Shown here in pieces: positions 41,279 to 45,864 of a stretch of 64,000 bases of DNA (the first letter of the stretch is position 1; each line of letters starts with the position of its first letter). Source of the stretch: an uncultured Verrucomicrobiales bacterium (lineage in GTDB: Bacteria; Verrucomicrobiota; Verrucomicrobiia; Verrucomicrobiales; DEV007); contig CALKOM010000026.1 of assembly GCA_938091905.1 (NCBI GenBank), positions 7,338 to 71,337 on the forward strand, read 5' to 3'. The notes beneath the pieces were generated by a model that made no database searches, had not been told where the DNA came from, and was given only the letters and a program-made list of their open reading frames with translations. Made by a program: the position numbers and the translations under genes.

Positions 41279-41640
41279 GAAGTGGAGCGCTCATGCTACG
41301 GCTCAGCGCAGGAAATGCCAACGTGAAGCGCAGGAGCAACCACGGCCGCCTAAAAGTGCCATCTCCTCCCTATTGTGGGGCCTCTTTGAAGAACGCACAT
41401 CTTGGCCCATGCCGAATACTCCTGTTATCTCTGGCTGGCTGGATTGAAGTGTGCGTGAAGCTGAAGGATCTCAAGCTGCTCGATGATCGGATCGTCTTTC
41501 GTCCCTAAATTATCCCGTTCGCACTCAAATTTCTATTGATTCCACCCCTTCTCAAAGCTAAGGGCCACGACGAAGAGGCCTACGCCGATTCCGCACCGAG
41601 ACAGGCGACCTTGTCCCACGATAAATAGAAAGTTTTACCG

Positions 41641-41862
41641 ATGGCTGTTACACCAAGCAAAGATTACAAACGTCAGGAGCGCGAGCAGAGGAAGATTGAT
41701 AAGCGCATGGCCCGCGAGGCAGCGAAAGCCAAGAAGCAGGAAGAGGATGCTAAGAGGCAGGAAGAGGAAGCTAAGCAGCAGGAAGAGGATGCCAAGAGGA
41801 AGGAAGAGGAGGAATTCGAGGCAGAACTCGAGGCCGAGCGTCTTTCCAAGGCCGGTGAGTGA
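41641..41862 (+). CDS. Possible small Lys/Glu-rich coiled-coil protein
   Basis: 73-aa ORF built largely from four 7-aa K.QEE(D/E)A repeats. Coding status is uncertain and I recognise no homolog. Confidence 0.3.
   Translation: MAVTPSKDYKRQEREQRKIDKRMAREAAKAKKQEEDAKRQEEEAKQQEEDAKRKEEEEFEAELEAERLSKAGE
41731..41814. repeat. Four tandem 21-bp units (AAGNNGCAGGAAGAGGANGCN type)
   Basis: Read directly: units at 41731-41751, 41752-41772, 41773-41793 and 41794-41814, in frame with the small ORF. Confidence 0.9.
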
Positions 41863-42367
41863 TCGCTGTGGTTTTACCACGCTCTTGGTGAGTTAGGAAG
41901 CGCTGCCGGGAGCAGCTTAAGAGTCTGTGGAAGGATGGATCTCCTAGTTGCTTCGAGCGCCAACAGGCAACTTCATCGATCAAGCCTGCTTTCGTGGCCG
42001 TTTATCAACAGGTTAGACATACGGGATCTGTTGAAACGCAAAGAGGAAGAATGAATGAATGGATTGTGGGTGAGGGAAATCAGAGGTTCTTCGCGGCTTT
42101 TCCGGCCTGGCAATTGTCTCGAACTTTGCGTCCTCGCGTCTCTCATCCGTCGGCATTCATTCAGGATATTTCCGGCTGAGGAGCGGAAAGGTCGGTCTAG
42201 GCCGGTAGATAGATTGAGTAGTGCAAGGCATAAGGAGGGGGCCAGAAGGTGGATTCAGGATCGATCATCGGAGTCACTTTGAGGTGGCTGGTCAAAACGG
42301 AGCCAATCTGAAGGCTTGGTTAAGGATTCCTGGTAGGTTGAGAAATCAACATTAAACCTACAAAGAA

Positions 42368-42679
42368 ATGCCAAAACGTAATAAAAGATGAATACTCTCC
42401 GCGCGGTTCAAATTCCGCGTTGCCCTCGAGGCCGCGAAAGGTCTCAGGAGCATCAACGAGATTGCTGCAGAGCACAAGCTAGCGTCCTCACAAGTCACGG
42501 CGTGGAAGAAGGAATTACTCTCCGAAGGTAGCGCTCTCTTTGAGCGCAAGAACGCCAAGAACCATGAGATCGACGAGGAGAAAGAGCGCACGGACGCACT
42601 GGAACGAACCTTGGGTCGAGTAGTCGTTGAGAAAGAGTTCCTGGTAAAAAAGTGCAAGGAGCTGGGGATTGAGCCATGA
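42368..42679 (+). pseudogene. IS3 orfA (HTH plus leucine zipper) with a premature in-frame TGA at codon 8
   Basis: Reads MPKRNKR, TGA at 42389-42391, then ILSARFKFRVALEAAKGLRSINEIAAEHKLASSQVTAWKKELLSEGSALFERKNAK...EKEFLVKKCKELGIEP, all in one frame. Confidence 0.75.
42646..42652 (+). promoter_or_regulatory. A_AAA_AAG -1 ribosomal frameshift heptamer typical of IS3-family orfA/orfB
   Basis: In the orfA zero frame (gtA AAA AAG). However, the -1 frame hits TGA at 42670-42672, just before the orfB ATG at 42676, so the site is probably no longer productive. Confidence 0.5.
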
Positions 42680-43879
42680 GAAAGACAATGGTGGAAACAG
42701 ACCATCCACAGCTCAGCACCCGCAAGCAATGCGAGCTTCTTGGAGTAAATCGCAACCGGCTAAGGCCAAAGTGTCCGCGCCCATGGCAGCCGAGGACTGA
42801 GCACAAAGAAATGTTAGCATTGATCCCGCTGATCCATGCAAAGGATCCCACGATGGGAGCACGCCAACTAGGTATCGTGCTAGGAAGAAACGACTATCAT
42901 GCAAGCCGTTGGACGACAGGAAAGATGATGGAACACCTTGGAATCAAGGCCATCTACTGTAGTCCATGCACGACGCAAGCAGCGCCAGAGAATCCTAAAT
43001 ACCCGTATTTTTGGCTCTCCGTCAGATTGGCTGGGTCAGAAGCGGTCCCCGCTACGGGTTCAGAGCCAGGGCAGGAGATCGTAACCAGTTGACAATGTCC
43101 ATCTTAAGCAATCCTGGCCTGCTCGCGAACATCCAAGGAAATGTCCTTCGAACTTTGGGGCAAGTTGACAGGCAGGTCCGGGATTCCGTGGCAAAATTGC
43201 AAGATGCTTGCACTGCAGCCTCGATCACTTTCCCATCGCTTCCCTGGCCCCCTGCCAGGCCTCAGAAGCATCCAGCAAACTTGACGGAGAGCCGTATTTT
43301 TTGCGTAATCGCCAGATCACCAAAGCGGATGAAGTTTGGGCGATCGACATCACTTACATCCCGTGGAGTCGTGGGCACGTGTACCTAGCAGCGATCATTG
43401 ATTGGAAAACACGAGCAGTGTTAGCTTGGCGAGTGAACAACACCATGGACGTCGACTTCTGCCTCGACGTGCTTTGCGAAGCAATCGGAGTTGCCGGTGC
43501 GGTTCCAGAGATCATCAACACAGACCAAGGCAGCCAATTCACGGGCGTGGAATGGATCAGCGCGGTCGAGGACCTCGGAGCGCGAGTGAGCATGGACGGA
43601 AAAGGGCGCTGGATGGACAACGTCCTCATCGAGCGTCTGTGGCGAAGTGTGAAACACGAGTGGGTGTTGCTGCACGAATACAACACGATTCCGGAACTCG
43701 AAGCGCTGCTGAGCGAATGGATCGAGCGCTACAACACCTGGAGACCGCACACGGCAAATGGAGGGGAAACACCTTGGCAGGCCTACCGAGGCCTGCTTCC
43801 GAAGCTGGAGCGAGAAGAAGTGAAGGGGGGGACCGAGCAATTGTTAGAATTTCGGTCTCGGTCTCGGTCTCCATTCTAA
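42676..43879 (+). pseudogene. IS3 orfB (DDE integrase-type transposase) interrupted by a 281-bp insertion
   Basis: N-terminal part ...HPQLSTRKQCELLGVNRN...PTMGARQL...ENPKYPYF. C-terminal part LRNRQITKADEVWAIDITYIPW...AAIIDWKTRAV...NTDQGSQFTG...SMDGKGRWMDNVLIERLWRSVKHE...YNTWRPH (D, D, E regions). The two parts lie in different frames, separated by 43013-43301. Confidence 0.8.
43013..43293. mobile_element. MITE-like non-autonomous element (281 bp) with 12-bp perfect terminal inverted repeats and an 8-bp target-site duplication
   Basis: Left end GGCTCTCCGTCA (43013-43024); right end TGACGGAGAGCC (43282-43293). Flanking direct repeats GTATTTTT at 43005-43012 and 43294-43301. Removing 289 bp restores ...NPKYPYFLRNRQITKADEVW.... 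The element has no ORF. Confidence 0.8.
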
Positions 43880-43886
43880 CAATTGC
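43837..43886. repeat. 14-bp perfect inverted repeat (GCAATTGTTAGAAT / ATTCTAACAATTGC) enclosing a (CGGTCT)3 loop
   Basis: Read directly: arms at 43837-43850 and 43873-43886, with a 22-nt loop TTCGGTCTCGGTCTCGGTCTCC. It spans the end of orfB (stop 43877-43879) inside the IS3 right arm. Confidence 0.85.
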
Positions 43887-43992
43887 CCATCTGTAAGCTT
43901 CCGGGATCATTCATTGACAACCAATCTAGCCTGTATTAACAAGACAGCCCTGCTAGGATTCATGCTTAAATCCAGCACCTAATTGGCTCCGC

Positions 43993-45864
43993 TTGCTCAG
44001 CAACCTCACACCTTACTTTAATCCTGTGTACCTCGGCTGCGTCCTTGCCATTGTTTGCGGGATCCTACCAAAGGGCGCTTTGGCACAACGCCAGATGGAG
44101 GTATTGAAGCGAGGAATTGTCGCCGTGAAGCATGAGGATAGCGTGTTTGTGAGTTGGCGACTGTTCGGAACGGATTCAGAGCGCGTTGCTTTTTATCTCT
44201 ATCGAAGAACTGGGGAAGGCGAAGCTACAAGGGTAAATCCAAAGCCGATCTCGGGCGCGACTAATTTCACCGATTTTGATGGTGACACTAGCAAGGAACT
44301 AGATTACTTTGTGCGGCCGATCTTAGATGGTAAGGAGCTTGATGCATCTAACGTCGTTCGGGCCTGGGATGAACCCTATTTGGAGATCCCGATACGGCCG
44401 ATCAGAGATTATAATCCAGGCGATGCTTCGATCGCTGATCTAGACGGCGATGGCGAGTATGAGATCGTCCTGCATCAAACCTCTCGGGCTCGTGACAATT
44501 CACATCCTGGCATTACCGGTAAGCCCATTTTGGATGCCTACGAGTTCGATGGGACTTTTCTGTGGCGGATCGATCTCGGCATAAATATTCGTGAGGGCGA
44601 ACATTACACTCAATTCATGGTTTACGATCTGGATGGCGATGGAAGCGCCGAGATGGCTTGCAAGACGGCGGATGGAACGATTGACGGGGCAGGTAACGTT
44701 ATTGGCGATGCGAGTAAAGACTGGCGTATCAAGAATGAGGGTGATCGGCGCCATGGCCGGGTTCTTGACGGGCCAGAGTTTTTAACCATCTTCGATGGAA
44801 AGACTGGGGCAGCTCTGAAGACAGTCGATTACATCCCGAGCAGAGCTCCCATCGATGGCTGGGGAGGGAAGGGCGGTAATGGTGGTAATGATAGCTACGG
44901 TAACCGTTGTGATCGGTTTCTCGCCTGCGTGGCCTACCTGGATGGCGACTGGCCTAGTGTGGTCATGTGTCGTGGCGTTTATGGGCGCACCGTGATGGCG
45001 GCGTGGGACTGGCGCGAGGGTGAATTAACCAATCGTTGGACCTTCGATTCGGGGACGAGTTATCCTCCTTACGAAGGAGCCTCGTCTTTCTCCGGTATGG
45101 GGGGGCACTCACTCTCTGTGGCTGATGTCGATGCTGATGGCAAAGACGAGATCGTTTATCAAGCAATGGTTATTGATGACAATGGTGAGGGGCTCTACTC
45201 GACTGGGAGGCGTCATGGGGACTCTATGCACATCAGTGATTTCTATCCTGATCGGCCTGGGCTTGAACTGTTCTTGATCACGGAGAATGAAGCTCGAACC
45301 GTGGCCTTGCAAACTCCGGGAGCAGGGATGCACGACGCTCGAACGGGAAAGGTGCTTTGGAGCCACAGCCTCGGAGTGGATGTCAAAGCCGGTCTTGTGG
45401 CCGACATCGATCCGCGCCACCCTGGAGCGGAAGCCTGGGGCGGTCCAGGAGGCCTGCGCAATGCCGCAGGAGAAGATATTGGCCCTTGTCCACAATCTAA
45501 TGGATTTGCGCTTTGGTGGGATGGGGATCTCCTGCGCGAGTTGTTGGGCCGGGGTTCTTCGATCACCAAATGGAACTGGGAAAAGGGCCGAGAAGAGACT
45601 TTGTTAGAAACACGCGAAGGCAACGCTGGCCGTCGTCGGGGCAGGCGTCCGAGTCTTACCGGAGACATCCTAGGAGATTGGCGCGAAGAACTGTTGATTC
45701 CTTCTCCCGATGGAAAATCTCTACGGCTCTATACGACAATGATTTCGACGGAACACCGTCTGGTCACTCTGATGCATGATCCCCAATATCGATTGGGAAT
45801 GGCTTGGCAGAACGTCGTCTATAACAAACCACCGCATCCAAGTTTCTTTCTAGGCGACAATTAG
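43993..45864 (+). CDS. Rhamnogalacturonan lyase, polysaccharide lyase family 11 (YesW-like)
   Basis: LKRGIVAVKHEDSVFVSWRL, DLDGDGEYEIVLH and YDLDGDGSAEMA FG-GAP-like calcium sites give a typical PL11 propeller pattern. The tracked TTG start (43993) lies inside the IS3 right inverted repeat. An alternative start is GTG 44026 (MYLGCVLAIVCGILPKGALAQ). Confidence 0.75.
   Translation: MLSNLTPYFNPVYLGCVLAIVCGILPKGALAQRQMEVLKRGIVAVKHEDSVFVSWRLFGTDSERVAFYLYRRTGEGEATRVNPKPISGATNFTDFDGDTSKELDYFVRPILDGKELDASNVVRAWDEPYLEIPIRPIRDYNPGDASIADLDGDGEYEIVLHQTSRARDNSHPGITGKPILDAYEFDGTFLWRIDLGINIREGEHYTQFMVYDLDGDGSAEMACKTADGTIDGAGNVIGDASKDWRIKNEGDRRHGRVLDGPEFLTIFDGKTGAALKTVDYIPSRAPIDGWGGKGGNGGNDSYGNRCDRFLACVAYLDGDWPSVVMCRGVYGRTVMAAWDWREGELTNRWTFDSGTSYPPYEGASSFSGMGGHSLSVADVDADGKDEIVYQAMVIDDNGEGLYSTGRRHGDSMHISDFYPDRPGLELFLITENEARTVALQTPGAGMHDARTGKVLWSHSLGVDVKAGLVADIDPRHPGAEAWGGPGGLRNAAGEDIGPCPQSNGFALWWDGDLLRELLGRGSSITKWNWEKGREETLLETREGNAGRRRGRRPSLTGDILGDWREELLIPSPDGKSLRLYTTMISTEHRLVTLMHDPQYRLGMAWQNVVYNKPPHPSFFLGDN

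Follow-up and report, generated by a model that had tools for sequence, protein, structure and literature searches.

A short non-autonomous element with ISL3-type ends nested in an IS3 transposase gene of a marine Verrucomicrobiales bacterium

The interrupted IS3 element and its intruder

The stretch of DNA considered here belongs to contig CALKOM010000026.1 of an uncultured marine Verrucomicrobiales bacterium (assembly GCA_938091905.1). It is called the window in what follows and comprises 64 kb (64,000 nt), to which all plain coordinates refer. Between hrpB and a rhamnogalacturonan-lyase gene, the window carries an insertion sequence (IS) of the IS3 family whose transposase gene, orfB, is itself interrupted by 281 bp of non-coding DNA. 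This segment, at 43013-43293, is a non-autonomous miniature inverted-repeat transposable element (MITE) nested in the IS3 transposase gene. A preliminary description, drawn from the letters of the window, had proposed such a nested insertion of 281 bp with an 8-bp target-site duplication. The coordinates, the flanking octamers and the empty and filled alleles described below agree with this proposal.

The two extremities of the element form a perfect 12/12 terminal inverted repeat, GGCTCTCCGTCA at 43013-43024 and its reverse complement TGACGGAGAGCC at 43282-43293. When extended to 22 nt (43013-34 and 43272-93), the arms are 86% complementary, and the repeat search returned the 19/22 that had already been reported along with the perfect 12-bp core. 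Within the window, the exact 12-mer GGCTCTCCGTCA is confined to these two places. The chance of encountering a second exact copy was estimated at about 0.008, and the abutting 8-bp direct repeat GTATTTTT brings in a further factor of 1/65536. No other copy of the element ends or of the IS3 was found in the 64 kb, and matches to the ends with up to two mismatches occurred at chance level (7 observed against 7.2 expected).

The insertion is equally apparent from the coding frame. The upstream frame of orfB terminates in ...ENPKYPYF at 43012, and ...PYFLRNRQITKADEVWAIDITYIPW resumes beyond the second octamer within an open reading frame (ORF) extending from 43208 to 43879. The last T of the duplication provides the first base of the Leu codon and the frame resumes at 43301; the preliminary description had the correct end and placed the resumption at 43302, a trivial offset. 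Removal of 289 bp, corresponding to the element and one octamer, restores KYPYF/LRNRQ. That this deletion rebuilds the frame had been anticipated, and a protein search with the rebuilt OrfB uncovered the uninterrupted proteins P0001 (98% identical) and P0067 (209 residues), both of which read ...KYPYFLRNRQ... at the junction. All full-length OrfB homologues among the matches listed, which extend to about 63% identity (for example P0001-P0004 and P0039), are free of any interruption here. The preliminary description had envisaged that uninterrupted homologues might contain equivalent sequence here, in which case the segment would not be an insertion; these homologues read straight through.

Rebuilt OrfB comprises 304 residues, scores 215.5 bits against the IS3 transposase model NF033516 (cut-off 160) and matches PF00665 at 8e-21. 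Because the rve core begins at residue 120 and the break falls after codon 112, the MITE severs OrfB just ahead of its catalytic domain. The added 289 bp cause a frameshift after codon 112, upstream of the rve/DDE core, and inactivate OrfB and OrfAB of that IS3 copy. The effect here is the insertional death of another mobile element. The features of both elements and of the related copies discussed below are collected in Table 1.

Table 1. Positions of the nested elements, their parts and the related copies found in other contigs (MAG, metagenome-assembled genome)
Feature	Coordinates	Strand	Basis and remarks
Host IS3-family IS, TG...CA ends	42280..44008	+	Gapped end alignment; 1729 bp as found, 1440 bp once the MITE and one octamer are subtracted
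IS3 left inverted repeat TGAGGTGGCTGGTCAAAACGGAGCCAAT	42280..42307	+	Gapped end alignment
IS3 orfA, 103 codons, helix-turn-helix	42368..42679	+	Pfam HTH_28 and HTH_Tnp_1 matches; CGA>TGA nonsense codon in the window
Slippery heptamer A AAA AAG, orfA frame	42646..42652	+	Read from sequence; -1 slip would lead into the orfB frame
5' part of IS3 orfB, codons 1-112	42676..43012	+	Severed ahead of the DDE/rve core
Left copy of the 8-bp target-site duplication GTATTTTT	43005..43012	.	Read from sequence; single GTATTTTT in empty-site alleles
MITE, 281 bp, subfamily E, non-coding	43013..43293	+	Deletion derivative of the 289-bp canonical copy
Left terminal inverted repeat GGCTCTCCGTCAGATTGGCTGG	43013..43034	+	Repeat search; 22/22 to the left ends of partial ISL3 copies L046, L047 and L071
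Window-specific 8-bp deletion site	43178..43181	.	Canonical GGT-CCGGCATG-CCGG, window GGT-CCGG; CCGGCATGCCGG is a palindrome
Right terminal inverted repeat, inward GGCTCTCCGTCAAGTTTGCTGG(ATG)	43272..43293	-	24/25 to the left end of the L004 1289-bp ISL3 element
Right copy of the 8-bp target-site duplication GTATTTTT	43294..43301	.	Read from sequence
3' part of IS3 orfB, rve/DDE core	43301..43879	+	Window-specific +1 frameshift near the C-terminus, ~43825-43832
IS3 right inverted repeat, inward TGAGGTTGCTGAGCAAGCGGAGCCAAT	43982..44008	-	Gapped end alignment
Complete subfamily E copy, 288 bp, 98.6%	L092 404-691		Protein search with the open frames of the element; other gene context
Subfamily E copy truncated to the right-hand 131 bp	L088 1426-1555 = L093 701-830		Metagenome scan (L088) and protein search (L093)
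Full 1289-bp IS	L004 4901-6189		Long-contig MAG CBDDAB01; flanked by an 8-bp duplication
Full 1289-bp IS	L033 5573-6861		Long-contig MAG CBDDAB01; same ends as L004

The host IS3 possesses imperfect terminal inverted repeats of about 27 nt. Its heptamer stands in the arrangement of a classical IS3 OrfAB, which would presumably be produced by frameshifting. The flanks of the IS, ...CACTT/TG and CA/CACCTT, are without a clean 3-5-bp repeat, as read with no IS3-free allele recovered for comparison. Only two all-A/T octamers are contained in the 1440 bp of the IS3, and the target of the MITE overlaps one of them. Between hrpB and the IS3 lies a 73-codon Lys/Glu-rich ORF (41641-41862), also called as a gene in the orthologous contigs, inside which four units of a 21-bp tandem repeat are found (41717-41821).

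Empty, filled and decayed alleles of one locus

The preliminary description had suggested looking for the empty site in other copies of this IS3. Seven contigs assembled from JGI, ENA and Logan samples (L078-L084) encode P0067 and share with the window the succession of hrpB, the 73-residue ORF, the IS3 and the rhamnogalacturonan-lyase gene, with 98.7% identity across 10 kb. Exactly 289 bp are absent from these contigs, a single GTATTTTT is kept at the alignment break (as it is throughout L077-L084), and the orfB of L078 is intact with 293 residues. What L078-L084 show is this individual IS3 copy, at its own locus, with the site unoccupied.

The filled state was recovered by looking up the exact HrpB sequence of the window, which led to L089 (assembly ERZ6864728) and L090 (ERZ23498998). 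Both are 99.6-99.8% identical to the window and carry the element at the same position, with the same duplication and a length of 289 bp. The 281 bp originally attributed to the element therefore hold for the window, the canonical form measuring 289 bp and the window copy being an 8-bp deletion derivative of it. The missing CCGGCATG is one half of the palindrome CCGGCATGCCGG, and these 8 bp are kept in L089, L090, L088, L092 and L093.

Since two independent assemblies carry the filled site, the insertion is real, naturally polymorphic and no artefact. A repeat misjoined into the IS3 in the course of metagenome assembly might otherwise have been suspected: the source looks like a MAG lineage, the repeats of this family break assemblies and many of their matches are located at contig ends. 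A misjoin is scarcely credible, however, as it would not be expected to create a perfect 8-bp duplication and as junctions and duplication are identical in L089 and L090, which originate from different samples.

The two alleles could also be read in the opposite direction. This IS3 copy would then have contained the 289 bp from the outset, with precise excision or deletion between the GTATTTTT repeats producing the empty alleles, a loss instead of a gain. Deletion between 8-bp direct repeats does occur and the allele tree is unrooted. Nevertheless, the uninterrupted homologues mentioned above, the tight grouping of the filled alleles and the membership of the segment in a mobile family with duplications of its own elsewhere make a loss very improbable. 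Such a loss would in any case alter the timing alone, the segment being an inserted MITE regardless.

Comparison of the alleles shows that insertion of the IS3 was followed by insertion of the MITE and then by decay. The IS3 insertion between hrpB and the rhamnogalacturonan-lyase gene is placed earliest because it is common to all alleles, and the MITE insertion second because it is confined to the 99.6-99.8% clade. Decay comes last because the window copy alone displays the 8-bp deletion in the MITE, the orfA nonsense codon and the frameshift at the 3' end of orfB. The insertion of the MITE is recent.

The degradation of the window copy can be followed along the IS3. Compared with the filled and empty alleles, it has four private substitutions within 57 bp (42340-42396), one of which is the CGA>TGA nonsense change at codon 8 of orfA (42389-42391), a gene that is intact in L089 and L078. 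The +1 frameshift at the 3' end of orfB (43825-43832) is likewise private to the window, as is a 6-nt expansion (43856-43862) adding an extra TCGGTC unit inside the hairpin CAATTGTTAGAAT...ATTCTAACAATTG.

Two further observations concern the extremities of the IS3. An 11-bp insertion, AAGGCTTGGTT, is found at 42311-42321, just inside the left end, in the window, L089 and L090, and is lacking in L077 and L078. Near the right end, L089 (1-131) and L090 (1-44, reverse strand) part from the window (43955-44008) about 53 bp before the IS3 terminus and their contigs stop soon after, as if these strains had either another repeat or an additional rearrangement at the IS3 terminus.

A family of short elements and its autonomous ISL3 partner

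The end pattern GGCTCTCCGTCANNTTNGCTGG was scanned against one genome per species, amounting to 596 Gb, for which about 4 chance matches were estimated. Ends of about 25 bp were found in 76 stretches of 11 genomes, all of them Verrucomicrobiales: Luteolibacter, Haloferula, and Akkermansiaceae and Verrucomicrobiaceae MAGs. At least 25 stretches hold both ends, 260-367 bp apart. Twenty-four complete short elements could be paired with both of their flanks, and one more (L070) is situated at a contig end; complete short copies thus number at least 24 and are distributed over 7 of the 11 end-bearing genomes. Many single ends sit 70-170 bp from contig ends, a position to be expected if the repeat breaks assemblies. 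The element had no match in the plasmid collection.

An autonomous IS with the same ends, which the preliminary description had proposed to seek, is present in two full copies (L004 and L033). Their ends read GGCTCTCCGTCAGGTTTGCTGGATG and GGTCCTCCGTCAGGTTTGCTGGATG, they are flanked by the 8-bp duplications GAAAAAGT and AATCATTT, and each encodes a single protein of 399 residues scoring 273.7 bits against the ISL3 model NF033550 (cut-off 180) and 217.9 bits against PF01610 (cut-off 23). This protein is only about 28-32% identical to the ISL3 transposases of sequenced plasmids, the best match, annotated as ISRta1-like, reaching 32%. The length of these elements, their single DDE_Tnp_ISL3 transposase, their inverted repeats of about 25 bp and their 8-bp AT-rich duplications are all traits of the ISL3 family. 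Partial ISL3 copies co-occur with the short elements in several MAGs, L046 and L071 in CALLLI01, L047 in JBNMNB01 and L023 in JBLHHN01.

These partners bear directly on the nature of the mobilising enzyme, for which the preliminary description had offered ISL3-, IS6- or IS256-type transposases. The autonomous elements with the same ends, which encode an ISL3-family transposase, decide between these options for ISL3. A MITE moved by another family producing 8-bp duplications with GG-initiated ends (IS6/IS26 or IS256) could be argued from two facts: 8-bp duplications are not unique to ISL3, and no transposase of these families is seen in the window, where the search covered ISL3 only. Against it, an ISL3 transposase exceeding the NCBIfam curated cut-off is encoded by every autonomous element found to have these ends, the identity of the window ends to ISL3 elements ranges from 22/22 to 24/25, and the GGCTCTCCGTCA ends start with GGCTCT as do published ISL3-type ends. 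We consider a mobiliser of another family even less probable than the loss discussed above.

The short elements fall into five subfamilies. Subfamily A (289 bp) numbers 13 copies that share about 97% identity, MAG JBLHHN01 contributing ten and JBNMNB01 three. Subfamily B (289 bp) resides in the CALLLI01 MAG, subfamily C (288 bp, with a 260-bp variant) at several loci and subfamily D (366-367 bp) in Luteolibacter sp. Populi. Subfamily E (289 bp, 281 bp in the window) is that of the window itself. When the window element was compared by blastn with the 76 genome loci, the ends alone matched, and subfamily E is therefore missing from the GTDB species representatives. A shuffle test detects relatedness among the interiors of A, B, C and E (z = 3.1-7.2), whereas the interior of D is unrelated though its ends are the same.

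The search for further copies, equally foreseen in the preliminary description, thus revealed a wider family in 11 genomes, and subfamily E itself is known from three loci, namely that of the window, L092 and L088/L093, the contexts of the latter two being unrelated. The complete L092 copy was read through by the gene caller as a 192-residue ORF. The truncated copy, 98.5% identical to the 289-bp form over 131 bp in L088, is fused to the 3' end of a Sel1-repeat gene, and the L088 and L093 contigs represent one locus. A metagenome scan with the left-end 22-mer returned 0 matches; L092 has a G>T change within that 22-mer.

Target duplications were surveyed in 27 elements: the window copy, both full ISs and the 24 short elements paired with their flanks. 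Perfect 8-bp duplications flank 13 of them, including both autonomous copies, and another 3 display 7/8 identity. The 11 distinct perfect octamers have a mean A+T content of 79% against genomes of about 54% G+C; the targets are AT-rich octamers. In one copy (L019, 1857-2145), the 8-bp flanks ATTTCTTT and AAAGAAAT are mutually reverse complementary and not direct repeats.

The preliminary description had regarded the element as non-autonomous and devoid of an ORF. Indeed, no ORF is conserved across subfamilies, and all that a protein search with the long frames retrieved was read-through ORFs belonging to other copies. As a single strand, the element gives a better fold than its shuffles (z = -3.5), a property that terminal inverted repeats confer on any such element. 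The consensus fold of 10 members consists of the terminal stem only, with a negligible covariation term of -1.5 kcal/mol, and an Rfam scan of 41500-44500 at E <= 1 found no match. Neither a promoter-like site nor a terminator was detected in the element, nor a promoter-like site around it. It is an element without detectable cargo, conserved ORF or conserved internal fold. A functional intervening sequence, be it a self-splicing intron, a structured RNA or a small gene serving the host, could draw on the better-than-shuffled fold and on the 288-289-bp length held by the subfamilies; with these negative results for Rfam, covariation, common ORFs and promoters, it deserves hardly any credence.

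The constancy of length nevertheless calls for comment. Subfamilies A, B, C and E (L001, L009, L011, L089 and others, from different Verrucomicrobiales genomes) are only about 41-46% identical in their interiors and still measure 288-289 bp, an equality that is reached in the alignments only with compensating insertions and deletions. Selection on the element length, or on some interior feature, is a tentative idea to which we attach a small probability. Such selection might arise if the ISL3 transpososome, acting on very short substrates, needs a given spacing or looping, or possibly from a role at the level of the host; simple neutral decay between conserved ends is the alternative.

An IS3 copy 80% identical to that of the window occurs in the first 700 nt of L011 (CALLLI010000169.1), the only hit of OrfB by tblastn among all end-bearing loci. 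This contig begins within 2-3 nt of the homologous insertion point, where no MITE sequence was found, and the right end of its IS3 is followed by several units of the 9-bp tandem repeat CAGCCACCT. The break could be due to chance (about 0.4%) or to an assembly break at a repeat junction; as a weaker lead, it could signal a recurrent hot spot in this IS3 lineage. No same-site insertion was seen in other IS3 homologues, the truncated or chimeric P0099, P0105 and P0114 being interrupted at other positions. Most likely, both the constant length and the L011 break are unremarkable.

Proposed mobilisation in trans, precedents and significance

The window element has the length of a MITE, terminal inverted repeats, a target duplication with its empty site, no transposase coding, multiple copies and ends in common with an autonomous element. 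Very probably, the 281 bp represent a MITE that belongs to an ISL3-derived family widespread in Verrucomicrobiales and that an ISL3-family transposase inserted in trans into the IS3 orfB. In the proposed pathway, an ISL3-family DDE transposase supplied by an autonomous element of about 1.3 kb elsewhere in the genome would recognise the ~25-bp ends GGCTCTCCGTCAGRTTKGCTGGRT. The element would be directed into the AT-rich octamer GTATTTTT inside the orfB of the resident IS3, and the 8-bp duplication would result from cuts staggered by 8 bp and subsequent gap repair.

Several observations weigh against this interpretation. A recognisable duplication is wanting in 11 of the 27 family members surveyed, so that recombination between copies or decay must be invoked; the figure itself hints at such recombination. 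The complete subfamily E copy of L092, outside that survey, is likewise without one. Apart from 25-39 bp at the ends, the MITE and the ISL3 element have no similarity, which leaves descent of the MITE from ISL3 by deletion a conjecture. The ISL3 transposase gene is absent from the 64-kb window, and for a partner within the same cell one has to argue from related genomes. Finally, mobilisation in trans is, for this family, a prediction from sequence. The claim of the preliminary description that the transposase was encoded elsewhere is consistent with the autonomous ISL3 elements sharing these ends in related genomes, and mobilisation in trans in the source cell may reasonably be inferred from them.

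ISL3-mobilised MITEs have already been described in Microcystis, and the present case is an ordinary kind of nested transposition. In Microcystis aeruginosa, a MITE of 187 nt with ends GGCTCTTCG and 8-nt direct repeats was matched to ISL3 elements of 1215 bp (PMC11448079), and Microcystis genomes contain hundreds of MITEs beside ISL3 copies (PMC2779907). The element of PMC11448079 and ours are both short, non-coding and multi-copy, with GGCTCT ends matching co-resident ISL3 ISs, 8-bp direct repeats and insertions into genes. They differ in their host (Cyanobacteria versus Verrucomicrobiota), in length (187 nt versus 289 bp) and in their ends, GGCTCTTCG... and GGCTCTCCGTCA... having no detected similarity past the first six bases.

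The L004/L033 partner, with its 1289 bp, single DDE_Tnp_ISL3 transposase, ~25-bp repeats and 8-bp AT-rich duplications, resembles the ISL3 family ISs (ISL3, IS1411, ISPst9, ISRta1 and others), from which the window element differs in retaining the ends only, without a transposase. The Verrucomicrobiales clade is also distant from the named members, its best plasmid match being the ISRta1-like protein cited above. Correia/NEMIS, RUP and the MaeMITEs of Microcystis NIES-843 (PMC2779907) similarly have terminal inverted repeats, a target duplication, a size below 600 bp and no transposase. They too undergo genome-specific bursts, comparable to subfamilies A and B, whose copies are about 97% identical within one MAG; they depend on other transposase families and have other duplication lengths, and no regulatory role is indicated here. 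As in nested IS-in-IS insertions, a transposase gene is broken by a second mobile element, which kills the copy concerned. There is no difference in principle, the intruder being non-autonomous here and both alleles having been recovered as a population polymorphism.

In the literature library that was searched, no paper contained the end sequence GGCTCTCCGTCA and none described MITEs in Verrucomicrobia. General knowledge of transposition is unchanged by these findings. Their interest resides in a phylum whose mobile elements are little described: a non-autonomous element of ISL3 type is now documented in Verrucomicrobiales with its empty, filled and decayed alleles and an autonomous partner. 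For annotation, the split IS3 transposase is to be treated as one pseudogene and not as two genes. The repeat also accounts for assembly breaks in these genomes, and the insertion serves as a strain-level marker.

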